Counted from the stretch's first letter, positions 1 through 21,188 are shown. The stretch: 64,000 nucleotides of DNA from Candidatus Bathyarchaeota archaeon (GCA_963811105.1 CAWEPZ010000011.1:1312001-1376000), one strand, 5' to 3'. Numbers and translations: made by a program. The notes: a model not told the origin generated them from the letters alone.

Positions 1-2
1 GC

Positions 3-122
3 AAAAGTGAACAGTTGAAATCTCAATACGAAAAAACCGAGGATAAAGGTTATGGCTGTAACGCATGGGCTAGTGAGACAGAGCAACCAAAAAGCCTAAA
101 CCAAGTCACCGAGACAAACTAG
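3..122 (+). CDS. possible 3' end of a gene entering from the left edge (KSEQLKSQYEKTEDKGYGCNAW...)
   Basis: Open frame from position 3 to TAG at 120-122; no recognisable motif. Confidence 0.25.
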   Translation, partial: KSEQLKSQYEKTEDKGYGCNAWASETEQPKSLNQVTETN

Positions 123-259
123 AATTTGAGTTTGACAAATATAGTGAATATTTAATATTAATTTATTGCTTAACTATTGCAAAAATAACAAACTTAGCTA
201 AAAAAAAGCAATTAGTATAAACATACGAGCAATGAATATAAACATGAGAAAAGAGGTAA

Positions 260-400
260 ATGAAAATGTGTCAATTAAGAGCAGGTTTAGTTAAAAACTG
301 CCGCAGGTGCAAATCGTCTATTCGACTTAATTGTCCGATTAGAAAGAAAGTGAAAAAGAAAACTTACATAGACACCAAGAAGAAGGGCGAAAGTAAATAA
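260..400 (+). CDS. small basic Cys-rich protein, 46 aa (MKMCQLRAGLVKNCRRCKSSIRLNCPIRKKVKKK...)
   Basis: Manual translation (below ORF-track cutoff); GAGGT SD motif at 253-257; TATA-like TATAAA elements upstream; four Cys and a Lys-rich tail. Confidence 0.55.
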   Translation: MKMCQLRAGLVKNCRRCKSSIRLNCPIRKKVKKKTYIDTKKKGESK

Positions 401-612
401 CAACTAAGAGTGAAGCCAAATAACAACAGAGAAAAAACTGAATTAAACTAATCAGCGTATGCGCTGAAAACTAGCTTCACTTTCAGAAAATTGCCAAGTT
501 TATATCTAAGAACGCGTCTTGACACCCTTACCGAATCACAATATGTTCTAATGATGTAGAGAGAACGGATTTACTGCTTCTATCCGAAATATGTTTAAAT
601 GAGTGTTGAAAA

Positions 613-2781
613 TTGAACGAAGTTCAGCTGAAAGTTCTGGATTCCAGACAGAGAGATGTGGCAAGAGGAATCGCCAGAATAGACCAGATAACAATGCAGA
701 AGTTAGGAGTTTTATCTGGAGACGTAATAGAGTTCTCAGGGAAGAAAAAAACGTCGGCGAGCGCTTGGCCAGCGTACTCTGAAGACCAGGATCCAAACGT
801 TATGCGAATCGATGGGGTCTTACGTAAAAATGCTGGCGTATCAATAAACGATTTCGTTGTAGTTCGCAAGGCTGACGTTAAAAATGCCCTGAGCATAGTG
901 CTTGCTCCTGTGGATATGCAATTGAAAGTTGACGAAGACTTTGCAAATTTTGTGAAGAACAGACTTATAGATAGGACTTTTGTTGAGGGAGACAAGACGT
1001 CCGTTATGATGCTTGGTCATTCTGTTCAGTTCACTGTTGCGAAGATGCAGCCCCAAGGAATAGTAAAGATGACCAACGATACTATATTGCAGATATTAAC
1101 TGACCCCGTTGCTGAAGCTGAAAGTGTGCCACGTATCACCTATGAGGACTTAGGAGGTTTGGAGGAGGAGATTCAACGCATAAGGGAGATGGTTGAACTT
1201 CCAATGCGGCATCCCGAGATTTTCCAGAGGCTTGGAATAGATCCTCCGAAAGGGGTTCTACTGCTTGGTCCACCCGGCTGCGGAAAGACACTCCTAGCTA
1301 GAGCAGTAGCGAATGAGTCTGACGCAAACTTCTTCTCAATAAACGGGCCTGAGATAATAAGTAAGTTCTATGGGGAGTCGGAGGCGAAGCTTCGAGAAAT
1401 ATTTCAACAGGCTCATAAAAGCGCTCCGAGCATCATACTCATAGATGAGTTGGACTCCATCGCGCCCAAACGTGAGGAGGTTACTGGTGAAGTGGAGAAA
1501 AGGGTTGTCGCTCAGCTTCTATCTCTCATGGACGGATTGACTGGTAGAGGAAATGTCATAGTAATAGGTGCAACAAACAGACCGAATGCTTTGGATCCAG
1601 CTCTCAGGAGGCCTGGGCGGTTTGACCGCGAGATAGAGATAGGGACCCCGGACAAGCGGGGGCGTCATGAAATATTGTTGATTCATAGCAGAGGTATGCC
1701 CTTAGCCCGTGATGTTGAGTTAAAGGTGCTTGCTGAGCGGACGCACGGTTACACGGGTGCTGACTTGGCTGCCCTGTGTAGAGAGGCAGCTATGAAAGCT
1801 CTACTTAGGTATCTTCCCGAGATAAATCTGAAGGAAGAGCGAATACCTCCCTGCGTCCTGGAGAAGATGGATGTTCGAATAGATGATTTCATGAGCGCCT
1901 TCAAGGAGATTACACCTACAGCTATGAGGGAGATTGCTGTGGAAGTTCCGGTTGTTCATTGGGATGAAGTGGGAGGCTTGGAGGAGGTTAAAGAGAAGTT
2001 AAAGGAGGCTGTTGAGTGGCCGCTGAAAAATCCTGAAGTCTTCAAGAGATTGGGGATTCAGCCGCCTAAAGGTATACTGTTAATAGGCCCGCCTGGGTGT
2101 GGGAAGACAATGCTGGCTAGGGCTGTTGCAACTGAGAGCGAGGCAAACTTCATTTCGATTAAGAGTCCGGAGGTTTTCTCTAAGTGGGTTGGCGAGTCTG
2201 AAAAGGCTATTCGAGAGATTTTCAGGAAGGCTAGAATGGCTTCGCCAGCGGTCATATTCTTCGATGAAGTTGACTCTCTTGTTCCAAGGAGGGAGCAGGG
2301 TTACGGTGACAACGGAGTAACTGAACGCGTCATCAGCCAGCTTTTGACAGAAATGGATGGAATAATGCCCTTAGAAGACATCATAGTTATAGCTGCGACA
2401 AATAGGCCCGATATTGTCGACTCAGCCATATTAAGGCCAGGCAGATTCGATCGGCTAATTTATGTTCCAGAACCCGACGAAGCGGCCAGGCTTGAAATCT
2501 TTAAGATTCATACGAAGAATATGCCACTACAAAATCTTGTGGACATCAAGGCGTATCGCATGACGAAAGGTTACTCTGGCGCCGATATATCATCCGTTTG
2601 CAGGGAGGCCGCCATGAACGCTTTGAGAAGAGACAGCAACGCAAAAGAGGTTGCCTTCAGCGATTTTGAGAAAGCTATACACGAAGTTCCGCCGAGCATA
2701 TCGCCAGAAATTGAGATTTGGTATAGGAGTTTTATGAATCAGGTTCGAAGGCTGCAGAAGCCTGCGCCTTTTGTAGTGTAA
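613..2781 (+). CDS. cdc48: CDC48/VCP (VAT) AAA+ ATPase
   Basis: N-domain ([11 protein letters not shown]...), two AAA modules with Walker A GPPGCGKT, Walker [16 protein letters not shown] and second region of homology RPGRFDR. Confidence 0.96.
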
Positions 2782-3237
2782 TTCCGGAAGGGACAGATAA
2801 ACGTGAATTTACGCTGTGAGTCGATTCAGCTTTATTAGGGTCTTCCCAAAGAAAGAGTGCGATGAATGGTTCCCCCAAATTTGGAACGCAACAGGAACCC
2901 GCCAAACAGAGAACCAGGTCGAAAGGAGAATTGCTTACTTCTCCCAGGAAATCGTAATTCGATTCGTGATGTTCTTCATTAAAAGGCGATAAAGCATTAG
3001 AAAGTAATAACCATAAGAAAGTGTAACGAACCGTGTTTTATCGGCAAAGAAATGAAATAATGTGTAAAAAAAGTTTATTAGAGCTGTACAGGTTGTGTGT
3101 ACGGCTCTTAAAAATTGGAGACTGTTTTTCGAGTTGGATGATTCAACATCAGAGGAAATCAAAAGTTCGAGAAGATCCGCATTCGAAAAGCACATTCACA
3201 CATGAATATCGTTTCGTAATTAAACTAACGGGGATAA

Positions 3238-6200
3238 ATGACTTTGACTGAAATTTCAAAAGAAGATATACATTTGTTGTTAAAATCTTTCTTCCACGAG
3301 AAAGGACTAGTTAGACAGCATCTGGATTCTTATAACGAGTTTATCGATCATGGATTGCAGGAGGTGGTGGATGAGGTTGGCGAAATCAATATTGAAGTTC
3401 CTGAATGTCCGTACAAGGTGAAGCTTGGGCAGGTTTGGGTGATAGATCCTCAATCAAGGATAACAGGGCCATACGTGGTAGAAGTAGATGGCGGTAAACA
3501 CGAAATTTACCCCATGGAAGCTAGACTCAGGAACCTTGCATACGCCGTGCCAGTGGCGCTTGAAATGACGCCCATAATAGATGGGAGAGAACAGGACACC
3601 GAACTTGTCTACATCGGCAACATTCCAGTCATGCTGAAATCGAAACTTTGCTTCTTATCCCAGCTTTCAACGGAGGAACTTATTGCTGCTGGAGAAGACC
3701 CTGATGACCAAGGCGGATACTTTGTTGTTAACGGGTCTGAACGCGTTATCATTGCCATGGAGGATCTGGCACCTAATCGCGTACTTGTTGACATTGACGA
3801 GAAAGGAACCTCACCAGTTTTTCAAGCAAAAATTTTCTCAACCACAGTCGGCTTCAGGGCTAGAATCGAACTTAAACTCAAATCGGACGATGCCATCTAC
3901 GTCACCATGCCAGGATTACCAACAGAAATCCCGTTCGTTGTCATAATGCGTGCGTTAAGCTTAGAAAAAGACAAAGATATTGCAGAAGCGGTCTCACTTG
4001 ATAGCGAAATGCAAAGCCACTTGGCCGCTTCATTTGAAAAAGCCATCGGTGTAGACACACCCGCTGACGCAATCCTATTCATTGGTAACCGTGTAGCTCA
4101 CGGGCAGGTTGAAGAATACCGCTTACTGAAAGCTGAGACTGCCCTTGACAAAAATTTCCTGCCCCACCTTGGCAGAAGCGACGCGAACCGAAAGGAAAAA
4201 GCAATTTTCCTAGGCGAAATGGCATACAGAGTTATACAGTTGAAAACAGGTAGACGGCAACCTGATGATAAAGATCATTTCAAGAATAAACGTTTGCGTC
4301 TCGGAGGTCCGCTTCTTGCAGACCTTTTCCGTGTCTCATTTAGAAACTTGACGAGAGACATGAAATACCAGCTTGAACGGATAGGCGTTAAAGGTCCAAT
4401 CATTAATGTTTCAGCGGCTGTTCGCTCTGGCATTATAACAGAACGTTTTCAGCATGCGTTGGCAACGGGCAACTGGGGAAGAGGCAGAGTCGGCATCACT
4501 CAGCTTTTAGACAGAACCAACTTCATCTCTACCCTAAGCCACTTACGCAGGCTTCAGTCGCCCCTGAGCAGAAGCCAACCTAACTTTGAAGCCAGAGACT
4601 TGCACCCAACCCATTGGGGACGCTTATGCCCTAACGAGACGCCTGAAGGCTCCAATTGTGGCTTAGTCAAAAACCTAGCATTGTCAGCTTCCATAGCAGT
4701 CGGTGTAAACCCTGACAAAATTAAGCAATTACTTTTTGAAATGGGTGCTGTTCCGGCAGGTGAAGCCAGCCGTGATTTACGTATTTCGGGAGCCAAAGTT
4801 TTCTTGGACGGAAACATCATTGCCTATTGCAATAACCCAATAGAAATTGTGAAGTCTTTCCGGGAAAAAAGGCGAGCTGGAGAAATCTCAACGGAGGCAA
4901 ACGTAACATATTTCTCAAAAATGCAAACTGAAACCGAAGAAGTTCATGCTAACTGTGACGAAGGCAGGGTAAGACGCCCACTCATAATTGTTGAGAATGG
5001 CGCTTCAAAACTTCAATCTAAACATTTTGAAAAGATTGGTTTAGGCGAGTGGACGTGGGAAGACGTGGTTAAGAACGGTTTGATTGAGTATTTAGACGCT
5101 GAAGAAGAGGAAAACGCTTTCATCGCCTTAACCTTCGACAAAATTGAGCCTCAAAACACTCATGTTGAAATAGCTACTTACACGATTCTCGGCATATGCG
5201 CTTCAACAATCCCCTATCCAGAACACAACCAGTCGCCTCGTAACTCGTACCAAGCAGCTATGGCTAAGCAAGCGTTGGGCGTTTATTGCACCAACTTCCA
5301 TCACCGAGTTGATTCACGCTCGCACATACTCCACTACCCGCAAGTCCCAATGGTTGAAACGGAATTAATGGAAGTCATGGGCTACAAGCAACGTCCTACA
5401 GGACAAAATTGCGTCGTCGCGGTGCTCAGCTTCGAAGGCTATAACATGGAAGACGCTCTAATATTCAATAAAGCATCAGTAGATCGTGGCTTAGCCAGAT
5501 CCACATTCTACCGCATTTACGAAGCTGAATGCCGCCAGTATCTAGGCGGATTAAAAGACAAGTTTACCGTTCCAGAACCTGGAACCCGTGGTTACCGCGG
5601 CGAACAATATTACAGGCTTTTGGAACCTGATGGAATAATCAGTTTAGAATCGCAAGTGGTCGGCGGAGATGTTTTAATCGGAAGAATTAGCCCGCCCAGA
5701 TTTCTTGAAGAATATAAAGAATTTGAAGTTAAAGGTCCCTCGATGCGTGATACTTCAGTTGACATGCGTCCCTCAGAAACAGGCGTCGTCGACAAGATCT
5801 TCATAACTCAGTCTGGAGGAGGAAGCAAACTCGTAAAGGTAAGAATCCGCGATCAACGTGTTCCAGAGTTAGGCGACAAGTTTGCCTCTAGACACGGTCA
5901 AAAAGGAGTAATCGGTCTAATCGTACCGCAAGAAGATTTGCCCTTCACGGATGAAGGAATTGTACCTGACCTAATAATCAATCCACATGCCATCCCCTCA
6001 AGAATGACCATCGGTCAATTCATCGAGTCACTCGCTGGAAAAGCTGCTTCGGCGAGAGGTAAACCAGCAAATGGTACACCATTTTCCAACGAAGGACCCG
6101 ACGAAATACGCAAGAGCCTTGTAAAACTCGGCTTTAGTCACACTGGAGGCGAAGTCTTCTATAGCGGTACAACAGGCGAAAAATTCGTTGCAGATGTATT

Positions 6201-6609
6201 CGTCGGCGTAGTTTACTACCAGAAACTTCACCACATGGTTGCGGACAAGATTCACGCAAGAGCCAGAGGTCAAGTACAGATGTTAACACGGCAACCAACT
6301 GAAGGCAGAGCTAGAGGTGGCGGTCTCAGGTTCGGAGAAATGGAGCGAGATTGCCTAATTGGACACGGCGCAGCCATGCTGCTCAGCGACAGAATGCTGG
6401 AAGAGTCAGACAAGTACACGCTTTACATCTGCGAGAACTGTGGGGAAATAGCCTACTATGATATGAAACAGAGGCGGTATGTGTGTAAAATCTGCGACGA
6501 AAAAGCCAAAGTTTCCCCAGTAATCGTCTCTTACGCTTTTAAGCTTCTGTTGCAGGAGCTCAAGAGTCTGTGTATAACTCCCAAATTAAGACTAAAGGAG
6601 AAGGCATAA
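3238..6609 (+). CDS. rpoB: DNA-directed RNA polymerase subunit B (Rpo2), unsplit
   Basis: GDKFASRHGQKG, KLHHMVADKIHAR, GGLRFGEMERDC and C-terminal Zn site CENCG...CKIC. Confidence 0.98.
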   Translation: MTLTEISKEDIHLLLKSFFHEKGLVRQHLDSYNEFIDHGLQEVVDEVGEINIEVPECPYKVKLGQVWVIDPQSRITGPYVVEVDGGKHEIYPMEARLRNLAYAVPVALEMTPIIDGREQDTELVYIGNIPVMLKSKLCFLSQLSTEELIAAGEDPDDQGGYFVVNGSERVIIAMEDLAPNRVLVDIDEKGTSPVFQAKIFSTTVGFRARIELKLKSDDAIYVTMPGLPTEIPFVVIMRALSLEKDKDIAEAVSLDSEMQSHLAASFEKAIGVDTPADAILFIGNRVAHGQVEEYRLLKAETALDKNFLPHLGRSDANRKEKAIFLGEMAYRVIQLKTGRRQPDDKDHFKNKRLRLGGPLLADLFRVSFRNLTRDMKYQLERIGVKGPIINVSAAVRSGIITERFQHALATGNWGRGRVGITQLLDRTNFISTLSHLRRLQSPLSRSQPNFEARDLHPTHWGRLCPNETPEGSNCGLVKNLALSASIAVGVNPDKIKQLLFEMGAVPAGEASRDLRISGAKVFLDGNIIAYCNNPIEIVKSFREKRRAGEISTEANVTYFSKMQTETEEVHANCDEGRVRRPLIIVENGASKLQSKHFEKIGLGEWTWEDVVKNGLIEYLDAEEEENAFIALTFDKIEPQNTHVEIATYTILGICASTIPYPEHNQSPRNSYQAAMAKQALGVYCTNFHHRVDSRSHILHYPQVPMVETELMEVMGYKQRPTGQNCVVAVLSFEGYNMEDALIFNKASVDRGLARSTFYRIYEAECRQYLGGLKDKFTVPEPGTRGYRGEQYYRLLEPDGIISLESQVVGGDVLIGRISPPRFLEEYKEFEVKGPSMRDTSVDMRPSETGVVDKIFITQSGGGSKLVKVRIRDQRVPELGDKFASRHGQKGVIGLIVPQEDLPFTDEGIVPDLIINPHAIPSRMTIGQFIESLAGKAASARGKPANGTPFSNEGPDEIRKSLVKLGFSHTGGEVFYSGTTGEKFVADVFVGVVYYQKLHHMVADKIHARARGQVQMLTRQPTEGRARGGGLRFGEMERDCLIGHGAAMLLSDRMLEESDKYTLYICENCGEIAYYDMKQRRYVCKICDEKAKVSPVIVSYAFKLLLQELKSLCITPKLRLKEKA

Positions 6610-6610
6610 A

Positions 6611-6715
6611 ATGGCTATAGATGAGATAACCCAGAGCTTTTGACGAAATCTCATTCGGTCTGATTTCATCGTAGACCTCCGCAAACAATCAGTCGTGGAA
6701 ATCCTAACACCCGAT
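6611..6715 (+). pseudogene. rpoA1: frameshifted N-terminal remnant of RNA polymerase subunit A' (Rpo1N)
   Basis: ATG 1 nt after the rpoB stop. Reading across two frameshifts gives MAIDEITQ..DEISFGLIS..DLRKQSVVEILTPD, which resembles the Rpo1N start (I.FG.LSP..IR.MSV.EI.TPD); similarity then ends. Confidence 0.75.
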
Positions 6716-6746
6716 AGGAGTATATTGCGCTTCCCCAAAAAAAGCG

Positions 6747-6835
6747 TTTGGGCCTGTCGTGGTTCTTAAAATTTGAGGTATCAGGAAAAACAAAAAGTGT
6801 CAAAAACTTGTTTTTCAGGCATTTAGAGGCCCAAA
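6747..6835. repeat. nested inverted repeats (possible hairpin, terminator or element scar)
   Basis: TTTGGGCCT 6747-6755 pairs with AGGCCCAAA 6827-6835; GAAAAACAA 6785-6793 pairs with TTGTTTTTC 6808-6816. Confidence 0.45.
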
Positions 6836-6883
6836 ACACTTGGCGCCTTAATGTTTGCCTATTGCGTGTTTCGCAAAGTATTC

Positions 6884-7171
6884 CTACTCTTTTGTAAGCA
6901 TTATTTCAATTGTTGAAACCATTCGTGCTCTGGTTTCGCCTTCTCTTGGCGGCATCTCCTCTGTTCCTATCACGATTTTATGTACTTTCAGGTCTTTTAG
7001 GAATCGATTTCTCGTTATTTCAGCTGCGTCAACAGCTGTAGTTATTGATTTTCCTCTGGCCTTTAAGGTTATATCTTTAGCATCGCTCGCCGACAAGCCT
7101 GTAATAATCGCCAAAACATAGTCCATCGGCATCTTATTTCCAACGAAAACAATTCTTGATTTTTCCGACAT
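6884..7171 (-). CDS. albA: Alba nucleic-acid-binding chromatin protein
   Basis: VFVGNK..MDYVLA, LKARGKSITTAVDAAE, VSTIEIML. Confidence 0.95.
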   Translation of the reverse strand: MSEKSRIVFVGNKMPMDYVLAIITGLSASDAKDITLKARGKSITTAVDAAEITRNRFLKDLKVHKIVIGTEEMPPREGETRARMVSTIEIMLTKE

Positions 7172-7562
7172 TTTCCATCACCATTTAATCATAACGTTAC
7201 TGCCCTATACTACGCAACTGCCCTATAAAGCGATTAAACAACAGAGCAGTCTGAAGATGTTTCAGTGTGGCTCCCTTATCCCAAAAGGTCGCCAGCCCGA
7301 AACTGGTCCGACTTGCACTGGACACTGAACGTTTGCCCAACATGTTTTTCGATGTTTTCTTGACTGTGAACGATTTTCGAGCTGATGGTTTACAAGGATT
7401 TAATTAGACTAATGGAGCCGTTTCCAAAGATGACGTCCGCGTTTTGAAGTTAGGCTGCTCTTGATAGGGGATTTGCTTAATATTTTAAACACATCCCAAT
7501 AGAATAGTAAAAACAGAATAAAAACAAAAGAAGGTTATTTTGACAGTGAAAATTTAACCGAC

Positions 7563-7757
7563 TAAGCGGTTATGCCTGTGATTTCACAGATTGAGGTGGG
7601 TCTGCGTATTTTTGGTGTGAGGATTTCCCATACTTTGCCTTTGGTATTCATGTCTTCATCTATGAAGTTGTTGACGGATACTTCTTGCTCGATTATTAAT
7701 CGTGCACGTTTTGTTAGCTTTTCTAAATATTGGTGTGTTCTTTGAAGCGTGAAGAAG
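7563..7757 (-). pseudogene. decayed gene 3' fragment (FFTLQRTHQYLEKLTKRARL...ICEITGITA*), possibly transposase-derived
   Basis: Open 60+ codon frame on the minus strand with no convincing start, in an AT-rich accessory region; the transposase assignment is a guess. Confidence 0.25.
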
Positions 7758-8112
7758 CAATATTAGTTTTAAAAGAGCTTTTTGAAAAATGCACTTTTCT
7801 TGATGGACGTTATTTGGCATTAATGCCAGCGGAAGCCCTACCTTAATGTCTCAAAAGTATCAAATTCTGATTAAGACCTCTCTTGACGAAGAAACAAGAA
7901 ACTGTATGCAAGATATTCTGATAAAATATCTGCTTACCATTAAAATTAAAGAAGAAAATACATTCATCATTTATCGACCAATTCAAGATAAAGAATAAAG
8001 GTTGAAGGCGAAAATATATGGAAAACTCTCCAAAATCCAAGCCACAGTAAACAATCTATAGAGCAAAGTTTCGTAGTAAAGCATTAAATATGACTAGAGA
8101 TAATCACAGGTT

Positions 8113-8220
8113 ATGACTGTTCTGGGTAGCAAGTGTTTCTGTGGAGGAAACGCTAATGTTTTCGAGGGCGGCGAGCAGTTCTGTAACGACTGTTACCTGA
8201 AGAAGAAGGGCAGACGTTAA
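8113..8220 (+). CDS. micro Zn-finger protein, 35 aa (MTVLGSKCFCGGNANVFEGGEQFCNDCYLKKKGRR)
   Basis: Manual translation; CxC...CxxC and basic tail; BRE/TATA-like AAAGCATTAAATA about 25-35 nt upstream. Confidence 0.6.
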   Translation: MTVLGSKCFCGGNANVFEGGEQFCNDCYLKKKGRR

Positions 8221-8275
8221 ACAACTTTGAATTTCTTAGGGCGTTCATCATACAGATTAGTTGGAGATAGAATTA

Positions 8276-8404
8276 ATGTCTAAAGAATTTGTAAAAGATT
8301 GTCCTTGTCCTTACTGTGGAAGTAGCAACATTGAAAACACAGACAAAGAAATAAAATGTCTTGATTGTGGAATGGGTAAATATAAAGTTGGCAAAGGTAA
8401 ATAA
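8276..8404 (+). CDS. CPxCG Zn-ribbon microprotein, 42 aa (MSKEFVKDCPCPYCGSSNIENTDKEIKCLDCGMGKYKVGKGK)
   Basis: Manual translation; GGAG SD at 8263-8266; CPYCG...CLDCG motifs. Confidence 0.7.
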   Translation: MSKEFVKDCPCPYCGSSNIENTDKEIKCLDCGMGKYKVGKGK

Positions 8405-8431
8405 ATAATAATTTTGAAATAGTTATTCTCA

Positions 8432-8677
8432 GTGCACTCAAAACTGAATAGCGTAAATGCCTTAAAGGGAATAGCTAACAGGTGGATACCTTATGTCATT
8501 CAACAACAGTTAAACGCTAAATCCGACGGAAAATCAGCGGTTTATTGGTTAGATGGCATTCCGAAATCCGATGATGCAGAACTTAAGGAAGGCGGGTTAA
8601 AGGCTTTTTCAGGTTCTGGTATACTATCTAGTGGTAGGCTAACTTTTTCTCCCTTTTACAATTCGGGTGATGATTGA
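8432..8677 (+). CDS. hypothetical protein or gene fragment
   Basis: 81-aa ORF with protein-like composition and no motif. Confidence 0.25.
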   Translation: MHSKLNSVNALKGIANRWIPYVIQQQLNAKSDGKSAVYWLDGIPKSDDAELKEGGLKAFSGSGILSSGRLTFSPFYNSGDD

Positions 8678-8810
8678 TTTTTACCAAAAGAATAAAAAAC
8701 TGTGAAAACCAAATAGTTTTTCTTGAGAGGTTTTTGGTGTGTACATAGCGCCATCATCATAGAAAGGCTTAAGCCTACTTTGGAAAATAGGATACTGAGG
8801 AGCTTATGAA

Positions 8811-9320
8811 ATGGTTAACGAAAGAATTAATGAGACTAAACAAAAAATTTTAGATTGGCTTAAAGAAGAAGCTTTTTCCGCAGAAGAAAAAGCTGACCCA
8901 AACGCATTTTTCAATATACAAGCAACTAGGAATAACATGGGGGTCAACATTATCCAGGCTATTCCTCGCAATGATAGTTTCTTTGTAGTAGCAAACATAA
9001 TCACAGCTGAAGAGGAACAAACTTTCTTGAAGGGTATGGGTTCTGAGAAAAGGCTAGATTTTATTTGGGATTTGCAAATGAACCTTCTTAAGAACAATGA
9101 ACTTGGCGATTTTGCTTTTAAACCAAAAGCTCCAGAGGAAATACAAATAATAACTATCACTTCAAGGGCAATTTTTTATGATGAGTTAACAAAAGCAAAA
9201 CTCCATTTCACAATACACGTTGTTCTAAAAGCTATGGTAATGACTATGTGGATGTTGCAAAAATATGCAGGAATAGCCCTTCCGAAGATAAACCAGAAAA
9301 AGCAAGACTATTCTATGTAG
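8811..9320 (+). CDS. DUF2299-like archaeal protein
   Basis: GAGGAG SD; KQKILDWLKEE N-terminus and IFYDELTK motif recalled as typical of this family. Confidence 0.65.
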   Translation: MVNERINETKQKILDWLKEEAFSAEEKADPNAFFNIQATRNNMGVNIIQAIPRNDSFFVVANIITAEEEQTFLKGMGSEKRLDFIWDLQMNLLKNNELGDFAFKPKAPEEIQIITITSRAIFYDELTKAKLHFTIHVVLKAMVMTMWMLQKYAGIALPKINQKKQDYSM

Positions 9321-9659
9321 TAACTTCCAGTTTTGTTTACTTTTTTCTTCTAAGGTATTGACGTGAGTTACACAGGTCGTTCAAAGGGTTCTTATGGGCT
9401 TATAATGTTTCAGCGTTTTCATGCTTAAAGTGAATCTTCGGGGAACACAGTAAAGTGATACAACATAGTCACCGAATTGCTCTTTAAGGCATCCATTTAC
9501 AAGCAAAAGACGCCGAAAATGAAGGCTTCATTGTTACGTGGAACCTTCCCTGGTGCTTTCACGGGGTTTTCGAACTTAAGCAAATTGTGCTTTTAGAATT
9601 AGCGTCTGAAATGGGTATATAAAGTCATTTTACCTTTTTAATATGACAGGTTGAATGTT

Positions 9660-9884
9660 ATGCCGAAATGTCCAAATTGTACAGCTCATATGAAAGAACC
9701 AGATAAAGAATGGAACTTTGGGCAATTTCGAGTAAAGATGTATAAGTGCACTAAATGCGGAAATCAATTTAGAGAATACTTCAAAGAAAACACTTTGAAA
9801 TTTACTTTGAGCGCACACAACGGTGGCTTGGGAAAGACCAGAGTGAGCAAAGAAACAACGGATAGACACAAGTTCTATCAATAA
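9660..9884 (+). CDS. Zn-ribbon protein, Cren7-like (CPNC...PDKEW...YKCTKCGNQFREY)
   Basis: Two CxxC knuckles with P-x-K-x-W and F-R motifs reminiscent of Cren7; strong TATA box (TATATAAA) at about 9617. Confidence 0.7.
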   Translation: MPKCPNCTAHMKEPDKEWNFGQFRVKMYKCTKCGNQFREYFKENTLKFTLSAHNGGLGKTRVSKETTDRHKFYQ

Positions 9885-10187
9885 CTCTTCTCTCTCGCGA
9901 ATATTGGTTCTTTCTCATTTGCATCCCTGATTTTTGTCACGTTTAGGTGCTTGTAACTAGCGCGCATGGCTGTTCCTAAATTAGTTTGCGAAGTATCGTA
10001 TGCTTCTTTATTTGCCTATTTTGTGCGTGTCTTTATAAGAGCTCGAGACTACTCATGATATGGCAGCGTTTAGCGGGTTTTACAGTGTTGAATCCTCTTT
10101 TTCCATGAATTCGCTGCAATATGGGCGCGGGCTAAGATCTGCTAGATGCTGCTTATAGAAGAAGGATGAAAAATACAAGAAGGAGAG

Positions 10188-10859
10188 GTGAAAAAAGTTT
10201 TGAAATATAAGTATCCTTTCGAGTATGAATTGGATCCTACGGAGATAGAGAAGGGAACTAACTGGGTAACCTTGAAACTAAAAAACATAGGAAATGAAAC
10301 TCTCAGAGACCTTGACGCACAATTGCACTCAAGGGACACATATAACCTATCAATTTTTGGATCATGGTCGTATGGGGCTGGACAACTCATTACGGAGTTG
10401 GAACCGAATAAGGAGGTCAGATTGGTTTTCCGGGCTAATGCAATAGGATCAGCTAATGTATACGCTACCCTCAAAGGACGTAAGGATGGAAAATACTTCT
10501 GGTGGGAATCCAGTTGGACGAGTCTCCATTTAAGCGACGAAAAAGCAGAAATCGGTAGCCTACTAGTGCTTTCGCATCCGTATACGTCAATTGGAAAGAC
10601 CATCAGCGCCGAGGCAACCGTTAAGGGCTTGAGAAAAAATGGTGTATTGACGCTGGAGTTTTGGGTGGAGACCCCCTCTGGAAAGAATGAACAGCAGGCT
10701 AAAATGGATATAAAGGATCTTCCCGTTGGAGAGGAATCCCGTTACACGGCTGAGTTCACGCCCAAGGAAACGGGGTTTTATACGATATACGCGTATTTGT
10801 ACGATGGATATATGAGAATAGGTTACAAGACAGCGCATATCCATGCGGCGAAAACATAG
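10188..10859 (+). CDS. protein with two Ig-like/CARDB-type beta-sandwich domains, no signal peptide
   Basis: GGAGAGG SD; VTLKLKNIGNE, LEPNKEVRLVF, LPVGEESRYTAEFTPKETGFYTIYAYL patterns. Confidence 0.65.
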   Translation: MKKVLKYKYPFEYELDPTEIEKGTNWVTLKLKNIGNETLRDLDAQLHSRDTYNLSIFGSWSYGAGQLITELEPNKEVRLVFRANAIGSANVYATLKGRKDGKYFWWESSWTSLHLSDEKAEIGSLLVLSHPYTSIGKTISAEATVKGLRKNGVLTLEFWVETPSGKNEQQAKMDIKDLPVGEESRYTAEFTPKETGFYTIYAYLYDGYMRIGYKTAHIHAAKT

Positions 10860-10962
10860 CAATAACCAAGCCAACCAAGTCTCAAGCTCAGCCCCATTTA
10901 CGTAATTATGAAAGTTGAGAGTAAAGAAAAAGGGAGATAGTGGTTGTTTTGGCTTCCAAGTT

Positions 10963-13500
10963 TTATGGTCGTTTTCTTAGTATCAGCACAATGACTGCAC
11001 CTATGATTAGGACTGCAATTATTATGGCGATTACTCCGGCTATGATTGTCATTGTGTAATCAGGTACTGCTTGCGCTTGGGTTGGCGTTTGTGTTGGTTG
11101 TGCATTTGCCACGACTGCTGCTGTTTCTGCCCATGAACTGCCGTATCCGCCGTTGCCTGCAAAGGTTGCTGTAATCTGGTAAGTTCCTGCGATTGTTGGG
11201 GTCCAAGTGTAGTGGAATGTTCCGCTGATGTCGCTTGTTGTGTCTCCGAGGTGTTGTGGGTTTCCGTTAGGGTCAGTTGCATCGATTGATACTGGTACAC
11301 CTGTGATTGTTATGTTGTGGTATATTCCGTCAATCGGGTGCTGCATATGCAAATATTCCATGTATGTGCCCATTGAATCGTCAGAAACGCATGCTTTACC
11401 CATCTGTGCTGGAGATTGGTCTAAGACTGTTCCAGAAATAATAGCGTTTGTACCAGCTGTTACTTGTGTTTGTGGAGCTGAAACAGAGGTAGCGCTTTCT
11501 CCTTTACCGAAAACGTACATGTACCCGTCATAACTATTGGACGCAGTCAAATAGCCATCTGCAACTGCACCTGGAGTCATGGGTCCAGTTATATTCCATA
11601 TGCCTTCGCCTGTAGTAGCGTTAATGCAATGTAGTTTCCAACCTCTTGTAATTGGCTCAGTTGGTGTGTGCTCAGTGTTGTATGTGTATACTTTTCCGTC
11701 AGCAACGAGGGTTGAGCCGTAGAAGGAATAAACCGTTGAACCGCTTGCATCAATGTATGGAGTTTCGTACGGGTTTGCTGGAGCTTCGTACTTCCAAATT
11801 ATTTTTCCTGTATCCCAATCGAAAGCATAGACACCGGAGTATGCTGCACGGAATATCATACCATAGGCTGAGGCTATATCATAAGCTCCAAAACCGGGTG
11901 CATCCCAAGGATAATCCATTCTGTCACTTACCCAAGCTACTGTTCCAGTTTGTGCATTCCAAGCATGAAAACGTCCGTCATCCATTAACACGGCAACTTT
12001 TCCATGATCAGCAACGTCTGAGCCTGCATTAAACATAACTAATCCTGCAACGTAATTATCCCACAACTGCGTACCTGTTGTCAAGCTAGCGGCTCTTACG
12101 CGTGTGCCATTGTATGAAGTCCCTTGCCCTCCTGCTCTAACCCATGATACGTCAACGCATACGTCTGATTGGAAGTCTTGTAAGCCGTTGCCAAATCCAA
12201 GGTTTGCCCATGGCCACGTTATGTTATTCATTATTCTCGAATTAAAGTCAGTGCTTGTCCCAAGCGTAGTCCAGTTGATCAAACGGTAGTTGTTTGCAGT
12301 AGCGTTTACGGTCTGTAAAGTCAATGCGTATCCGTTCCTGTAGTAAGTTCCAGAAGTCAGCACACCAGTTGAGACGTTGGCAGTAACTGCACCTGTGTAT
12401 GGATTATATTTTATCAGTCTTCCATTACTAATCGCTAAGAGACTCACGGAAGCGCCAGCATTGCCTGTGTTATCTGTAGCTACATATTCAATCGCTGTAG
12501 GTGCTATAACATCGGTTAAATCCCAATAAACCTGTCCAGTTCTTAGATCGTAGCATTCCCAAACGGTTGTTGGCAATGTTCGATAAGTCCCATTAAGCAA
12601 CGTTAACATTGGTTTCGTTAGAGTCTGGTAACATCGACCATCAAAGATTATGTTTGGCGTACCGCCACCACTGCTTAAAGAGACAATTCCTTGGTCACCG
12701 CCTATGAGTCCGGCAATGGCACCTTGACGTTTCCAGAGTATATGTGCAGAATCTGGCGCTTGAACCCATGGAACAAAGCCATAACTGTCGCTAAAATAGG
12801 GGTTTGTGTTAGGATAGAGTGCATCCCATTGTGGGCCTCCTCCGCTTGGTCCGTGCCATGGATAGTTTCCTGAGATTGGCCACCACTCTCGGTTTTCTGG
12901 TGAAATTGGTCTTGTCCAGTAATCAGTAGGCAAAGGAGCAACAGGCCATGACGCGATTAGATTCTCCTGAACAGTCAGATTTTGTTCTGCAGTTGAAGCA
13001 GGGGTAAAGTAATGCGAGACTGGATAAACTGTGCCTGATGTGTTAGTTACTAGATAGCCATTGAAGTATCTCCCCGCTGGGAAATATACGCCGGGAAAGT
13101 CAAATTTAAGCTTCCATGTGCCAACTTGGTCTGGATTGAACTCAAACCAATAGGTTCCGTCATTAACTTGAGAATTTACGGGTCCAATGGTTTGTTTGGT
13201 TCCGTCAGGTTTTGTGATTGTCACCACGTAACCTAGTTGCATTCGATCTTGTGCTGGCGGAGTAGTTGTCCATATGTTGACAAGGACGACTTGTTTCAGT
13301 CCTATAGGATTTGGTCTAAAACTGAGGTAGGCGCTTGGAGTGTAGGTTTCAGTTGCGGCAACTCCTGTTGGTAGCGGTCCTGCGGTGGGTTGTTGGGCAG
13401 CAATCTGAGCGTTGACAGGTTGAAATGAAAATAGTAATGAGGGCGAAATCATTAGCAGTATTATCAGTGTTGCATTTGTTATGATTTTCATTTTTTTCAT
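10963..13500 (-). CDS. secreted, membrane-anchored PQQ-like beta-propeller repeat protein (paralog 1)
   Basis: Signal peptide ending VNA-Q; WxxxTG propeller repeats; PTDYWTRP, ADHGK, EHTPTEPITRGW motifs; C-terminal TM plus RKRP. Confidence 0.88.
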   Translation of the reverse strand: MKKMKIITNATLIILLMISPSLLFSFQPVNAQIAAQQPTAGPLPTGVAATETYTPSAYLSFRPNPIGLKQVVLVNIWTTTPPAQDRMQLGYVVTITKPDGTKQTIGPVNSQVNDGTYWFEFNPDQVGTWKLKFDFPGVYFPAGRYFNGYLVTNTSGTVYPVSHYFTPASTAEQNLTVQENLIASWPVAPLPTDYWTRPISPENREWWPISGNYPWHGPSGGGPQWDALYPNTNPYFSDSYGFVPWVQAPDSAHILWKRQGAIAGLIGGDQGIVSLSSGGGTPNIIFDGRCYQTLTKPMLTLLNGTYRTLPTTVWECYDLRTGQVYWDLTDVIAPTAIEYVATDNTGNAGASVSLLAISNGRLIKYNPYTGAVTANVSTGVLTSGTYYRNGYALTLQTVNATANNYRLINWTTLGTSTDFNSRIMNNITWPWANLGFGNGLQDFQSDVCVDVSWVRAGGQGTSYNGTRVRAASLTTGTQLWDNYVAGLVMFNAGSDVADHGKVAVLMDDGRFHAWNAQTGTVAWVSDRMDYPWDAPGFGAYDIASAYGMIFRAAYSGVYAFDWDTGKIIWKYEAPANPYETPYIDASGSTVYSFYGSTLVADGKVYTYNTEHTPTEPITRGWKLHCINATTGEGIWNITGPMTPGAVADGYLTASNSYDGYMYVFGKGESATSVSAPQTQVTAGTNAIISGTVLDQSPAQMGKACVSDDSMGTYMEYLHMQHPIDGIYHNITITGVPVSIDATDPNGNPQHLGDTTSDISGTFHYTWTPTIAGTYQITATFAGNGGYGSSWAETAAVVANAQPTQTPTQAQAVPDYTMTIIAGVIAIIIAVLIIGAVIVLILRKRP

Positions 13501-14179
13501 TTTTTTTCCTCTTAGTTTTTGTGAAGGATCATTTTTGTACTTCTTCTAAGGGACTATACTAAGAATTTAGCTTTAAAGTCATGTGGAAAGTGGATACTGA
13601 GTACACAGTGATAGTTGTTAATGGTGTTGAAAGAAACGACTCTGCTAGAAATCATGCTTTGAAGATTCCAAAGTTTAGAGATTCCTTAAACCGATTCAAC
13701 GATTGTGGAGTGAGCGGTTGCAAAAGGAATGTTGGATTTATTCAGATTTCTCATTGTTTTGTTTCTTCCTTTAGTTTTTCGAGAAAGAGTTTAAACAAAG
13801 AAAGCATTTTCTTCAAATCTAAACATTTTCTCTGATAGACAACTTTACGTTAACTAGCTTTTAAGACTGAGTGGACAGTACCCACTGGTAACAAAATAGC
13901 ACTAAAATGAATCCATAGTGAATAAATGGGTTCTTTATTAAGTAACAAAAAGATAAAGAAATTGAGCTATCTAAGACAAGACATAACAAAAAACAATTGC
14001 TATATTGAGGCATTAAGCAAACAAGACTTGTATTTAATTTAAACCCTAAGATGGTTTTACAAATTCCTTTCGAGGTTTACAATTAGAGATTCTGAAAGTT
14101 TGCTGTCATCAGATACTTGGGAAAGACTTTAAAATGAAACAACCGATAAATCAGCAGTTAAAATAAGGAGAATAGAAAA

Positions 14180-16792
14180 ATGAAAATTAAATTTTCAGCA
14201 AATCTAAAAACGACTACAGCGATCGCTATTATACTAATGTTTTCTATGCTAATATCAACATTATCCGTTCAGTCGGTTAATGCTCAAACTACATATACAA
14301 ATTTGCAAGACGGCTCTTCCATGCCGTTACCCACCGGCGTGACAGCCGATGAAACAGTCACCACAAGCGCACATCTAAGCTATAGGCCTAATCCTGTAGG
14401 ACTCAATCAACCTATCCTAGTAAATCTTTGGATGCAACCGCCAATTCACGTAACTCACTACTTTAAGAACGCATTCATGGTGACATTCACAAAACCAGAT
14501 GGAACCACAGAGCAAGTCGGTCCATTATCTTCGTACCAAGGCGACTCAACAGCTTGGTTTGAAAAGAAAATGGATCAAATGGGCACATGGACCATAAAGT
14601 TTGACTTCCTAGGTGCATACTTCCCCGCAGGTAATTATACAATCGTTGCTGGTACTTTTTCAGGTCAAGGCGGTGTTAGTACAAATGCAGTATTCCCAAA
14701 TTCAATTTACTATGCCCCTAGTTCAGATGGCCCATACAACATCACCGTCCAACAAGACTTGATAGCCTCTTGGCCAACGGCACCACTACCAACCGACTAT
14801 TGGACAAGACCTATAGAACCACAAAACAGAGAATGGTGGCCAATCGCAGGTAACTATCCAGCAACTGGCATACTTGGAGGAGGCACTGATTGGCCAGCGG
14901 ACACAAATACTTACATGAGTAACTATGGATTCATCCCTTACGTTCAAGCGCCTAACACAGCACACATAGTATGGAAGCGACAAGGAGCTACAGCCGGTTT
15001 AATCGGTGGCGAAGCAGGGCAATACAGTATAACTACTGGTCCAGGAACCCCAAGCCTGGTCTATGCTGGAAGAGCATATCAAACGCTCACAAAAATCCTA
15101 AACGGAGTACAAACAAGCGTTTGGGAATGCTACGATTTGCGTACAGGCGAAGTTTACTGGGACCAAACAGGAGTCACTCAAGTACCCACATTCATTGGAT
15201 ATGATCCTCAAGCATTGAGTACCACTATAGCAGGAGCTGAGGCATCTTCATCTTGGGTTGCAAGTCTTGTCTTTGTCGGCAGCGGAAGGCTAATCAAATA
15301 CAACCCATGGATTGGCAGCGCAACACTGAACATCTCAATCGCTCCATTAACAACAGCTACACCATATGCTTACCCAAACTTCTTAAGCATTCAGAATATC
15401 GGTAGTACTGCAAGTCCAAACTACCGCTTAATTACTTGGACAGTAGCAACCGGCGGACTTTCAACAACCCCCATAGTACAATTCACAAGCAACGTCTCCT
15501 ACCCATTCGCAAGCATAGGCACTGCAGACTACGAATCGATGATAGCCGTTACAACACAAGGTATACGCGACATTCCCGCATCTGGACAAGTCGCTTCTTG
15601 GGAACCAACAGCAGCCGTCAACTCAGGAGTATCCTATAGCTACCGCATAATAGGAGTTAGCCTCTCAACCGGGCAAGTGCAGTTCAATGTCACAACCAAT
15701 CAGGCATACGGAGGAGTTTTCAGCGGAAGCACCGCAGTAGCTGACCATGGAAAATTCGCCCTCAGAATGAACGATGGACATTGGCATGCTTGGGACTTAC
15801 ACACAGGAAACGAGTTATGGACAAGTGAGATGTCTAGTTGGCCATGGGGTTCTTTTGGGATTTATGGCGTGACTTCATACGGCGGTCTTATTATTTATCC
15901 ACAGTACGACGGAGTTGTAGCATATAACTGGACTAACGGAAAAGTAGCTTGGCGATACCAATACGAAACCCCATATCCTTACGAAACTCCATATGAAGGC
16001 AACTATCCTTTCTATAGCTCCGCGGTTGACATTGCCGATGGAAAGCTCTATACATCCAATACTGAACACACACCAAGTAACCCCATTACTAGAGGATGGA
16101 AACTACATTGCATGAACGTAACTACAGGCGAAGGCATATGGAATATCACAGGTTCTTTCAGTGCAGGCGCTGTTGCTGACGGCTACTTAACCGCTTCTGA
16201 TGGCTATGATGGCTACATGTATGTTTTCGGCAAAGGACTCAGTTCAACTACAGTCTCAGCACCGCAGAATCAAATAATTGCAGGACAGAATGCCGTCATA
16301 TCGGGAACCGTGTTAGATCAATCTCCAGCACAGACGGGCAAAGCATGCGTTTCAGACAGTTCAATGGCTACATGGATGGAATACCTACATATGCAAATGC
16401 CAATAGACGGATTATCCCACAAAGTAATCATTACTGGTGTTCCAGTTTCAATCGATGCAGTTGACCCTAACGGAAATACAATACACCTTGCAACAGTTAC
16501 AAGCGATGTAAGTGGAACATTTGCTTATACATGGACACCAAGCCTAGCAGGCGACTGGAGAATTACTGCAACTTTCGCAGGAAGCGGCTCTTACGGCAGC
16601 TCATACGCAGAAGCGCATGCAAACGTTGTAAACGCACCTACAACAACAGTAACGCCAACCACAATAAGTTCAGCATCAGTAACCTCAACAGACGTAATGA
16701 CCTACATCGTCATAGCTGCAATCGCCATCATAATTGCTGTAGCAATAGTTGGCGCACTAATCATAAGGACTATCGCAAGAAAGCATTCATAA
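14180..16792 (+). CDS. secreted, membrane-anchored PQQ-like beta-propeller repeat protein (paralog 2)
   Basis: AAGGAG SD; same conserved blocks as paralog 1; Thr-rich linker and C-terminal TM. Confidence 0.88.
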   Translation: MKIKFSANLKTTTAIAIILMFSMLISTLSVQSVNAQTTYTNLQDGSSMPLPTGVTADETVTTSAHLSYRPNPVGLNQPILVNLWMQPPIHVTHYFKNAFMVTFTKPDGTTEQVGPLSSYQGDSTAWFEKKMDQMGTWTIKFDFLGAYFPAGNYTIVAGTFSGQGGVSTNAVFPNSIYYAPSSDGPYNITVQQDLIASWPTAPLPTDYWTRPIEPQNREWWPIAGNYPATGILGGGTDWPADTNTYMSNYGFIPYVQAPNTAHIVWKRQGATAGLIGGEAGQYSITTGPGTPSLVYAGRAYQTLTKILNGVQTSVWECYDLRTGEVYWDQTGVTQVPTFIGYDPQALSTTIAGAEASSSWVASLVFVGSGRLIKYNPWIGSATLNISIAPLTTATPYAYPNFLSIQNIGSTASPNYRLITWTVATGGLSTTPIVQFTSNVSYPFASIGTADYESMIAVTTQGIRDIPASGQVASWEPTAAVNSGVSYSYRIIGVSLSTGQVQFNVTTNQAYGGVFSGSTAVADHGKFALRMNDGHWHAWDLHTGNELWTSEMSSWPWGSFGIYGVTSYGGLIIYPQYDGVVAYNWTNGKVAWRYQYETPYPYETPYEGNYPFYSSAVDIADGKLYTSNTEHTPSNPITRGWKLHCMNVTTGEGIWNITGSFSAGAVADGYLTASDGYDGYMYVFGKGLSSTTVSAPQNQIIAGQNAVISGTVLDQSPAQTGKACVSDSSMATWMEYLHMQMPIDGLSHKVIITGVPVSIDAVDPNGNTIHLATVTSDVSGTFAYTWTPSLAGDWRITATFAGSGSYGSSYAEAHANVVNAPTTTVTPTTISSASVTSTDVMTYIVIAAIAIIIAVAIVGALIIRTIARKHS

Positions 16793-16805
16793 AAAGCGAA
16801 AACAA

Positions 16806-16830
16806 ATTTCTTCTCTTTTTTCTTCTTTCT
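16806..16830 (+). terminator. pyrimidine/oligo-T tract terminator
   Basis: TTTCTTCTCTTTTTTCTTCTTTCT just after the paralog 2 stop. Confidence 0.5.
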
Positions 16831-16854
16831 CATAAGACTGCAGCTAGTGGTTTC

Positions 16855-17049
16855 TTATTTTTCCAAATTCAAGAAAAAGGGACCTCCATAACCATTTCCT
16901 ACACCGCCGAGTGGTTCATCTTGAGCTTTGACTGGCAAGGGTATTAGTAACGAAGAGCTAAATAACAGTATCAAAATGACTGCAACTGTTAACGTCTTAG
17001 TATTCAAAGGAAAATTAGTCTTGTCTTTTAGTTCTTATAGAATTTTCAT
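16855..17049 (-). pseudogene. truncated fourth beta-propeller paralog (signal peptide region only)
   Basis: Upstream TAAGGAGAATACAAGAATGAAAATT nearly matches the paralog 2 start TAAGGAGAATAGAAAAATGAAAATT; reads MKIL*ELKDKTNFPLNTKTLTVAVILILLFSSSLLIPLPVKAQDEPLGG...; in-frame TAA at 17035-17037. Confidence 0.6.
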
Positions 17050-17299
17050 TCTTGTATTCTCCTTAATTCTAAGGGTGTCACAATTTATGCGAGGGATGCC
17101 AATTTAAGACTTTGCGAAATACCGTTTTACCTTAAAGAGCATATATCAAAAATTAAGGATGATTCTTCTCAACAATAAATAGAAGAAAGGAGGGAGCGTC
17201 GCGTAAAGTAACATTAGAAACTTGACATGACAAAGACTAAAGTTTTCTAAGCCAAACTTTTTAATTGTCCTTAGTTATTTAATTAATTGGGATGTTTGA

Positions 17300-17533
17300 A
17301 TGCCGCAAGCTTATGTTCTATTTAATGTAGAGTCAGGCTCAGAAGACATCGTGTTAAAAAAACTTAGGAGTCTCAGCAATGTCCAAGAATCCTATGTTTC
17401 CTATGGAGTATACGACTTAATCGTGAGGATAAAAGCAGACACCATGGAAGAGTTAAAAGACTCAGTCACTCACAAAATTCGAACCATCAATCAAGTTCGG
17501 TCGACCTTAACTTTGATAATGATGGAAGAATAA
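17300..17533 (+). CDS. Lrp/AsnC ligand-binding (RAM) domain protein
   Basis: AYVLFNVESG...YGVYDLIVRI...VRSTLTLI; no HTH. Confidence 0.9.
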   Translation: MPQAYVLFNVESGSEDIVLKKLRSLSNVQESYVSYGVYDLIVRIKADTMEELKDSVTHKIRTINQVRSTLTLIMMEE

Positions 17534-17697
17534 AAAAAAGACTCATGAAATTCGATTATTACTATCTCTAAACCTAGGTCTTCCTGTCCGCATTCTTTCA
17601 CAGATGTTAAAATTCAAGCATCGCCAATTCGAAGGGTAATTAGGTTAATTTTATATTTGGTTCATAGAGTAATTTGTTGATGAGCGGATGTAGTAAA

Positions 17698-17889: not shown

Positions 17890-18009
17890 TAAAAAACGAC
17901 TTTTGATTAAAAAAATGTAAATTGTTTAGACCTCCTCCGCCAACTGTCTGAATGCCGGGAGACTGTGTAGAAACGTTATCACCCAAAGAACGCGGATCCA
18001 TGTCGCGGC

Positions 18010-19860: not shown

Positions 19861-19861
19861 G

Positions 19862-21175: not shown

Positions 21176-21188
21176 TCATATTTCTCCT

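Follow-up and report, generated by a model that had tools for sequence, protein, structure and literature searches.

An intact orphan rpoB of mosaic structure in a soil Bathyarchaeia genome, probably a functional second gene for RNA polymerase subunit B

To our knowledge, archaea have one RNA polymerase (RNAP), with one gene for each core subunit. A soil archaeon of the Bathyarchaeia carries, outside its polymerase operon, an additional intact gene for the second subunit, here named rpoB-2 (product Rpo2-2), which raises the question of whether this orphan copy is a working gene or a passenger. The window, meaning the whole stretch of 64,000 nucleotides that was analysed, is G000:C11:1312001-1376000 (G, genome; C, contig), and positions given without a contig are counted from its first base. 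Its source, G000, is a metagenome-assembled genome (MAG) of 3.49 Mb in 15 contigs, with a completeness of 96.65% and an estimated contamination of 4.3%. A first-pass annotation of the sequence had proposed a segmental duplication in which the neighbours were lost and rpoB stayed under selection. Of this, the decay of the neighbours and the selection stood, as dN/dS (nonsynonymous to synonymous divergence) of 0.036-0.059 and broken flanking fragments were found; a clean duplication did not, and the mosaic structure and horizontal spread described below are additions to it. We conclude that rpoB-2 is probably a functional, selected second Rpo2, a reading drawn from sequence comparison.

The comparison set comprised 120 genomes of the genus, G000 counted in, and was searched with positions 2800-6900 of the window. 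A locus was scored as orphan-type where the match continued into the window-specific flanks. dN/dS was calculated by NG86, and 8 of 42 sequences, which had frameshifts or stops, were left out of the codon analyses. The named relatives, themselves MAGs, carry the labels Candidatus Bathyarchaeota or Bathyarchaeia; Ca. Bathycorpusculum, with 87–90% amino acid identity, is among them. The features of the locus are as follows.

613–2781, plus strand: Cdc48-2, a CDC48/VCP-type double-AAA ATPase paralogue (Pfam CDC48_N, CDC48_2 and two AAA domains)
2840–2990, plus strand: 3′ remnant of an N6/N4 DNA methylase gene, decayed (match to the methylase on C1)
3068–3237, plus strand: promoter-like element and leader (~155 nucleotides), shared with canonical upstream regions
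3238–6609, plus strand: rpoB-2 (Rpo2-2), intact, 1123 amino acids, second RNAP subunit B by sequence
3238–3637, plus strand: divergent 5′ segment of rpoB-2 (codons 1–133), defined by silent-site divergence
6612–6716, plus strand: rpoA stub, first ~35 codons, with two frameshifts; breakpoint common to all orphan loci
6785–6824, plus strand: nested inverted repeat and T run resembling a terminator hairpin (repeat search)
6884–7171, minus strand: Alba paralogue (Pfam Alba, E 8e-13)

The first-pass annotation had read rpoB-2 as full length with intact catalytic motifs, and the protein comparisons agree. Pfam domains Rpb2_1 to Rpb2_7 were all above cut-off, in order and on one polypeptide (domain 6, E 5e-140). 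In a PDB search, residues 2–1122 aligned to residues 5–1116 of the 8cro-type chain B, and five archaeal Rpo2 sequences (the 8cro, 2waq, 4qiw, 2pmz and 7ok0 groups) scored 1316–1388 bits over query residues 2–1122. The alignment to solved archaeal Rpo2 chains contained the GDKFASRHGQKG stretch and GDKF(A/S)SRHGQKG, the conserved hybrid-binding motif, and the C-terminal four-cysteine zinc ribbon, CENCG...CKIC, was intact. Every sequence test made places the product of rpoB-2 in the archaeal Rpo2 family; the one family character not found was operon context, as the gene does not stand directly before an rpoA.

The canonical rpoB was found at C1:35801-39169 (1122 amino acids, TTG start) and is followed by the only rpoA of the genome, which bears out the earlier expectation of two Rpo2 paralogues and contradicts its alternative of a split operon with a single rpoB. 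On C1 the gene order is methylase, rpoB, fused rpoA (1277 amino acids), L30e and NusA; the rpoB-rpoA operon spans C1:35801-43005, and the intact DNA methylase lies ~1 kb upstream of rpoB. A single Rpb1_1 match in the whole G000 genome indicates one rpoA. Among the other orphan-bearing genomes, one rpoA match each was found in G095, G099, G100 and G074, and none in G130, which is 68% complete. The two rpoB genes of G000 are 93.4% identical in amino acids and 82.0% in nucleotides, and share practically the same length, the domains and motifs, the TATA-like box and the leader. rpoB-2 differs from the canonical gene in its start codon (ATG, against TTG in canonical copies), in the 35-codon rpoA stub behind it, in the far older silent-site history of its first 133 codons and in its place on an accessory segment that occurs in 6 of 120 genomes.

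DNA homology to the canonical locus extends from position 3255 to 6714, stopping 105 nucleotides into rpoA. The stub begins with an ATG at 6612, one base past the rpoB-2 stop, and ends at 6714–6716; relative to canonical rpoA it has one 2-nucleotide and one 1-nucleotide deletion, in agreement with the first description of about 35 codons with two frameshifts starting 1 nucleotide downstream of rpoB. The nested inverted repeat reported near its end was also recovered: arms of 9 nucleotides at 6785–6793/6808–6816, 100% complementary, inside or overlapping a second pair at 6793–6807/6810–6824, together with the T run. This terminator-like repeat is kept in 5 of 7 orphan loci (alignment).

On the upstream side a weak resemblance to the RpoH C-terminus had been noted, and its reading as an rpoH remnant did not hold. 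HEYRFVIK (3203–3226) lies in the conserved rpoB leader, and the open reading frame (ORF) at 3033–3251 has no Pfam match. The true remnant is the methylase fragment, which moves the start of the feature from 3033 to ~2840, and the real rpoH, at C11:429626-429844, is unlinked to either rpoB and does not lie upstream of the canonical copy. In the methylase fragment, 26 of 49 residues are identical to residues 210–258 of the intact methylase on C1 (E 4e-14), and the nucleotide identity to canonical methylases is 69–77% over 62–170 nucleotides, with in-frame stops; its intact counterpart is the upstream neighbour of canonical rpoB. The TATA-like box GTTTATTAG at 3073–3081, with an A-rich stretch, lies ~157 nucleotides before the rpoB-2 start, and this box and blocks of the leader recur upstream of both kinds of rpoB (alignment of 5 orphan and 11 canonical sequences). 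Among the orphans, the promoter and leader of rpoB-2 are conserved, while the methylase fragment is down to ~50% amino acid identity and the rpoA stub is broken. The leader itself (~155 nucleotides) is conserved genus-wide and in the orphans, with its canonical equivalent at L033 7620–7803 (L, locus); it holds a possible 11-bp hairpin (TTTTTCAAxTTGG / AAAGTTTGAAA), and in its consensus structure 7 of 30 predicted pairs have pair-keeping changes on both sides. No Rfam family was matched in window positions 1–12000, the rpoB leader included.

As the first-pass annotation had advised, the same orphan was sought in related MAGs, and orphan-type loci were found in 6 of the 120 genomes: G000, G074 (on two contigs), G095, G099, G100 and G130. 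All seven loci share an identical rpoA breakpoint in the alignment, and because of this a single origin of the orphan locus is indicated. Orphan and canonical operon occur on the same contig in G095 (C3) and G099 (C5) and on two contigs in G100; in G130 the canonical copy is partial. Two further metagenome contigs carry the junction of rpoB-2 and rpoA stub, one of them 98.4% identical to positions 6570–6944. Short contigs from four independent sequencing runs cover rpoB-2, and one of 963 nucleotides bridges 2755–3717; none of the listed run contigs spans 6612–6900, and the 3′ junction was checked through the comparative loci. No RNA run was among the sequencing runs listed for the stretch. Among rpoB loci of named Bathyarchaeia species representatives, 3 of 67 are of the orphan type, with Cdc48-2 upstream and no rpoA behind. 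C1 rpoB and the PolD DP2 gene on C11 are each 98% identical to the sister species G124, and because both match at this level the two contigs are assigned to the same organism. The orphan locus is real and not an artefact.

Two side observations concern such loci elsewhere. A metagenome contig (L181 375–1504) and one run contig follow the window to 6944, within Alba, and then continue in unrelated sequence, which suggests a strain variant with another downstream junction. One Bathyarchaeota MAG outside the comparison set has two complete rpoB-rpoA loci (L098 and L107), each 88–89% identical to the query in amino acids, which would be either a mixed bin or a duplication of the whole operon.

Selection on rpoB-2 was estimated from the five of seven orphan copies that are intact. 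Over the whole gene, dN/dS was 0.036–0.059 in 10 orphan pairs and 0.028–0.055 in 25 orphan-canonical pairs; pairs among 17 canonical copies had a median of 0.024 (range 0.005–0.069). In codons 7–133, dN/dS was 0.09–0.17 among orphans, and between orphan and canonical copies dS was saturated, with dN at 0.08–0.10. Five substitutions are fixed in the orphans relative to 28–29 of 29 canonical sequences (P51N, I66V, S103A, P397S and Q1109K), and 46 further sites that are invariant in canonical copies vary in at least one orphan. A functional paralogue was taken to be one with an open frame across species and dN/dS far below 1 outside any converted part, and both were found here. By these estimates rpoB-2 is under strong purifying selection.

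The divergence of rpoB-2 is unevenly distributed along the gene. Over the first 400 nucleotides, the orphans are 71–78% identical to every canonical copy and 92–99% identical to one another, and amino acid identity to canonical copies is 87–90% despite the silent-site divergence; in codons 1–133 the residues that differ include 7, 17, 48, 51, 66, 81 and 103–106. From nucleotide 401 on, the orphans of G095, G099, G100, G130 and one of the two in G074 (contig C96) are 91–98% identical to the canonical rpoB of G004 and G095; this similarity equals that between orphans and in some parts exceeds it. Four-fold sites differ from canonical copies at 62–74% in the 5′ segment and at 20–53% in the rest. 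Measured against G004, the orphans differ at 24/39 to 27/38 four-fold sites in codons 7–133 (62–71%) and at 87/428 to 175/416 in codons 134–1123 (20–42%; for G130, 24/39 versus 97/428, Fisher p = 9e-7), while canonical pairs differ alike in both gene parts. Between orphans the contrast is reversed, with 8–22% four-fold differences in the 5′ part and 21–38% in the body. The bodies of the G000 copy and the second G074 copy (contig C36) differ from any canonical copy at 41–42% of four-fold sites, and they are intact, with dN/dS of ~0.04.

In the whole-gene tree, the seven orphans formed one clade (support 100/100) beside G078/G003/G046, G095 and G004, and the canonical copies of their hosts were scattered (G000 with G124, G100 with G072, G099 with G071). 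In the tree of the body, the orphans were nested among canonical copies (99/99), and the approximately unbiased (AU) test rejected a clade made up of canonical copies alone (p-AU 1.6e-94). In a 101-row tree of the 5′ segment, their stem was long (0.40 changes per site), and they fell outside a canonical genus clade of 53 rows (100/92). The mosaic points to gene conversion or recombination. Either rpoB-2 would be an old separate copy, or its 5′ end would come from a divergent rpoB that is unsampled; canonical sequence appears to have replaced the body, for the most part in G004/G095-like genomes and prior to further transfer of the segment.

Cdc48-2 always lies directly upstream of the orphan rpoB. 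It is 73% identical in amino acids to the core Cdc48 of G000 (C11:1190565-1192754); orthologues at 91–96% nucleotide identity occur in 19 of the 120 genomes, G000 included, and nearly all genomes of the genus have the core Cdc48 gene at 65–69%. DP2 identity to G000 is at most 80% in all genomes except G124. At four-fold sites, Cdc48-2 of G000 differs by only 7–12% from that of species with DP2 at 73–80%, and the protein differs at 43–70 of 723 positions between species, which implies that Cdc48-2 evolves fast at the protein level, with dN/dS much above that of rpoB-2. Because Cdc48-2 is too similar for the core-gene distances between species, these comparisons imply that the segment of Cdc48-2 and rpoB-2 moved horizontally between species of the genus. 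Cdc48-2 was not found in the sister species G124 (69% complete), which has nothing above 90% identity between ~C11:1292175 and window position 16921; synteny is back at 17240.

The course of events that we propose would begin with a segment of the canonical locus (rpoB with its promoter and leader, the 3′ part of the methylase before it and 105 nucleotides from the start of rpoA behind it) being copied between the accessory Cdc48 paralogue and the Alba paralogue. The truncated methylase and rpoA neighbours would then have decayed, while rpoB-2, its promoter retained, would have acquired an ATG start and an end with hairpin and T run and remained under purifying selection as a stand-alone gene. 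From nucleotide ~400 to its end, and into the rpoA stub, gene conversion or recombination would have replaced its sequence with that of canonical rpoB, so that only the first ~133 codons would carry an old, separate history, and the segment would have spread horizontally between species of this Bathyarchaeia genus. Rpo2-2 may assemble with the single Rpo1 (the fused RpoA) and the other subunits; catalysis would be essentially unchanged, and the gain would be an extra or differently regulated supply of B subunit and not a new enzyme.

The alternative that fares best, although we consider it unlikely, is that rpoB-2 is an idle hitch-hiker whose frame is held open by conversion repair and recent spread, with selection acting on Cdc48-2. 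The findings that weigh against a selected second Rpo2 have to be read with it. Gene conversion from the functional copy could alone hold most of the rpoB-2 frame open. The similarity of the body to G004/G095-type canonical rpoB matches that between orphans, and only 127 codons supply a selection signal that conversion does not affect. A single frameshift interrupts each of the copies of G100 and G099; it may be a sequencing error rather than decay, as 6 of 35 canonical copies are frameshifted too, most of them in few-contig assemblies resembling long-read data. The gene is dispensable, being deleted in G049 and missing from 12 other genomes with Cdc48-2. With only five residues fixed differently, no functional difference is evident, and in the alternative RNAP forms that the first-pass annotation thought possible the two proteins would differ little; we infer transcription, translation and incorporation of Rpo2-2 into RNAP from sequence. 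In an AU test with 42 rows, a position of the 5′ segment beside the G004 group was not rejected (p = 0.35); an origin of the segment outside the genus was accordingly dropped as something proven by the trees, and its tree position is unsure, while its excess of silent-site divergence is not in doubt. An idle copy is, however, difficult to reconcile with an unconverted 5′ segment that still encodes 87–90% identical protein at 62–74% four-fold difference with dN/dS of 0.09–0.17 among orphans, with a promoter and leader that stayed conserved while the methylase and rpoA fragments decayed, or with the G000 and C36 bodies, which are intact although far from every canonical copy at silent sites.

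Less probable still, and in our view doubtful, is a specialised Rpo2 that forms a distinct polymerase, for example with a protrusion tuned to a TBP paralogue or with insensitivity to an inhibitor. The N-terminal 133 codons, which were not homogenised, hold three of the five fixed substitutions (P51N, I66V and S103A); a TBP paralogue, a Vps4-like ATPase and two thermosome paralogues lie just upstream in G000; and rifamycin-insensitive rpoB paralogues of actinomycetes offer a precedent (PMC5431353). The substitutions are nevertheless few and conservative, the 5′ segment may evade conversion merely through its excess divergence, the defence-system search returned generic AAA similarity only, and TBP-2 is present in only three of six orphan genomes and also in genomes lacking the orphan. 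It would likewise be a long shot that the N-terminal protrusion segment was kept from homogenisation by selection, as a portable module of 'spare parts' would have it. That such a module exists, a mobile accessory segment with Rpo2-2 at its core that brings variant copies of essential machines (RNAP B subunit and Cdc48, in some genomes also TBP, Vps4-like ATPase, thermosome and Alba), giving a second polymerase form, seems improbable to us as well.

An artefact, be it a mixed bin, an assembly chimera at ~6715 as the first-pass annotation had allowed for, or an operon split with a single rpoB, is very improbable: despite the contamination estimate of the G000 MAG and the two orphan-type contigs in G074 (contamination 8%), the identical breakpoint recurs in seven loci of six genomes and in two metagenome contigs, orphan and canonical copy share single contigs in G095 and G099, C1 and C11 both match G124 at 98%, mis-assembly cannot make decayed methylase and rpoA fragments, and the genome has two rpoB genes.

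Duplicates of rpoB are known in actinomycetes, Nocardia rpoB2 among them; the actinomycete paralogue is altered at residues of the rifamycin pocket, and antibiotic tolerance and secondary metabolism have been connected with it. We know of no archaeal inhibitor pocket with which the rpoB-2 substitutions could be compared. Haloarchaea have multiple TBP and TFB. The nearest precedent for a second rpoB is, by analogy, the duplication in some actinomycetes, such as rpoB(S)/rpoB(R) of Nonomuraea gerenzanensis (PMC5431353); as in G000, the second-largest subunit has two full-length genes and the largest only one, which makes two polymerase forms possible, whereas the bacterial product is a beta subunit and rpoB-2 has five conservative fixed changes with no inhibitor link known. 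Duplicated core transcription components retained in prokaryotes also include TFS4 of Sulfolobus, a paralogous archaeal component (PMC5715097), and the two rpoA genes of Francisella (PMC3294249); these and the TBP/TFB sets are factors or a bacterial alpha subunit, in contrast to an archaeal catalytic-core subunit. The eukaryotic RPA2, RPB2, RPC2 and NRPD2 belong to the same protein family (PDB search, E 1e-272 to 1e-120) and indicate that duplicating the second-largest subunit can found separate polymerases; they diverged anciently and have their own largest subunits and factors, whereas the rpoB copies here are 93% identical and share one Rpo1. A full-text literature search found no archaeon reported to have kept a second rpoB, and a term search of PMC9012536 and bioRxiv 10.1101/2024.09.16.613360, their supplements aside, turned up nothing on one.

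If rpoB-2 is a selected second Rpo2 sharing one Rpo1, it would offer a natural system for the benefit of a second catalytic-core subunit and for how duplicated polymerase subunits start to diverge, or are stopped from doing so by gene conversion. If the 'spare parts' reading were true, the cell could build another form of polymerase whose interactions with factors or inhibitors are changed, a living first step in the splitting of one archaeal-type polymerase, as in eukaryotes. Estimates of genome quality and marker-gene profiling of communities treat rpoB as a single-copy marker. In such uses rpoB-2 would read as contamination and double-count some Bathyarchaeia, and its mosaic body would put it beside the wrong species in rpoB trees.

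The surroundings of rpoB-2 vary between genomes. Where Cdc48-2 occurs without the orphan, a 424-nucleotide stretch with small zinc-ribbon ORFs stands in the orphan's place; it was considered as a deletion scar (G098-type loci) and rejected, as it has no similarity to rpoB, rpoA or methylase. The sole deletion scar is that of G049, in which position 2920 is joined to 6518 and the last 92 nucleotides of rpoB-2 and the stub are kept. Tiny zinc-ribbon ORFs (CxxC...CxxC, 40–50 amino acids) were seen both at 8100–8404 and in the G098-type empty site, in variable DNA around Alba. The downstream Alba gene is one of five Alba matches in G000 and is 89.5% identical in amino acids to the copy at C2:644805, the one syntenic with G124.

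From L180 12652–19613 (L180 being the stretch directly upstream of the window, G000:C11:1292001-1312000) to positions 613–7171 of the window, extra copies of thermosome (two), a Vps4-like MIT-AAA ATPase, TBP, Cdc48, rpoB and Alba were noted, each with a paralogue elsewhere in G000 at 65–93% amino acid identity. The TBP-2 upstream in G000 is 74% identical in amino acids to the copy on C2; at 86% nucleotide identity or more it occurs in 14 of the 120 genomes but in only three of the six with the orphan (G000, G074 and G095), and it was rejected as an obligate partner of rpoB-2 as it is also found in genomes without the orphan. A defence system was likewise rejected: in PADLOC, Cdc48-2 and the Vps4-like protein showed no more than generic AAA+ similarity (IetA, TRIP13), and the nine remaining proteins had no match. 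As to hallmarks of a mobile element beside the orphan, the viral contigs searched held no close relative of rpoB-2 or Cdc48-2, and no tRNA genes were found in window positions 1–20000.

Farther upstream, an intron-bearing tRNA gene lies at L180 51–171 (Rfam tRNA, 47.6 bits), and direct repeats of the 28–31 nucleotides at its 3′ end, at L180 4377–4407, 6583–6613 and 9886–9913, delimit three cassettes of 2–4 kb: NikR with ZnuABC, a PAS histidine kinase, and a hybrid-cluster protein with an HTH_10 regulator. In G124 the tRNA is joined straight to the sequence past the last repeat. The cassettes resemble serial integration at the tRNA, with no integrase seen there. A DUF3800-X RNA (Rfam RF02984, 60.9 bits) at L180 11772–11845, minus strand, adjoins a multi-copy element at L180 10718–11137, which has matches of 81–87% on five G124 contigs and a weaker one of 73% on a sixth.

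Archaeal amoA was not found, and the controls of the same search were also blank. Large PQQ-like beta-propeller or Ig-like proteins are encoded at 10963–13500 (minus strand), 14180–16792 (plus) and 59387–62029 (plus); they have many diverged copies, with nucleotide matches of 65–71% at dozens of places in G124. A gene row for ATP-citrate lyase (two subunits), isocitrate dehydrogenase and aconitase occupies 18010–24356 (minus strand). At 39563–42400, Orc1/Cdc6 is divergent from the small subunit of PolD, the large subunit of which lies at 48606–52016, and this region is likely the neighbourhood of a replication origin.

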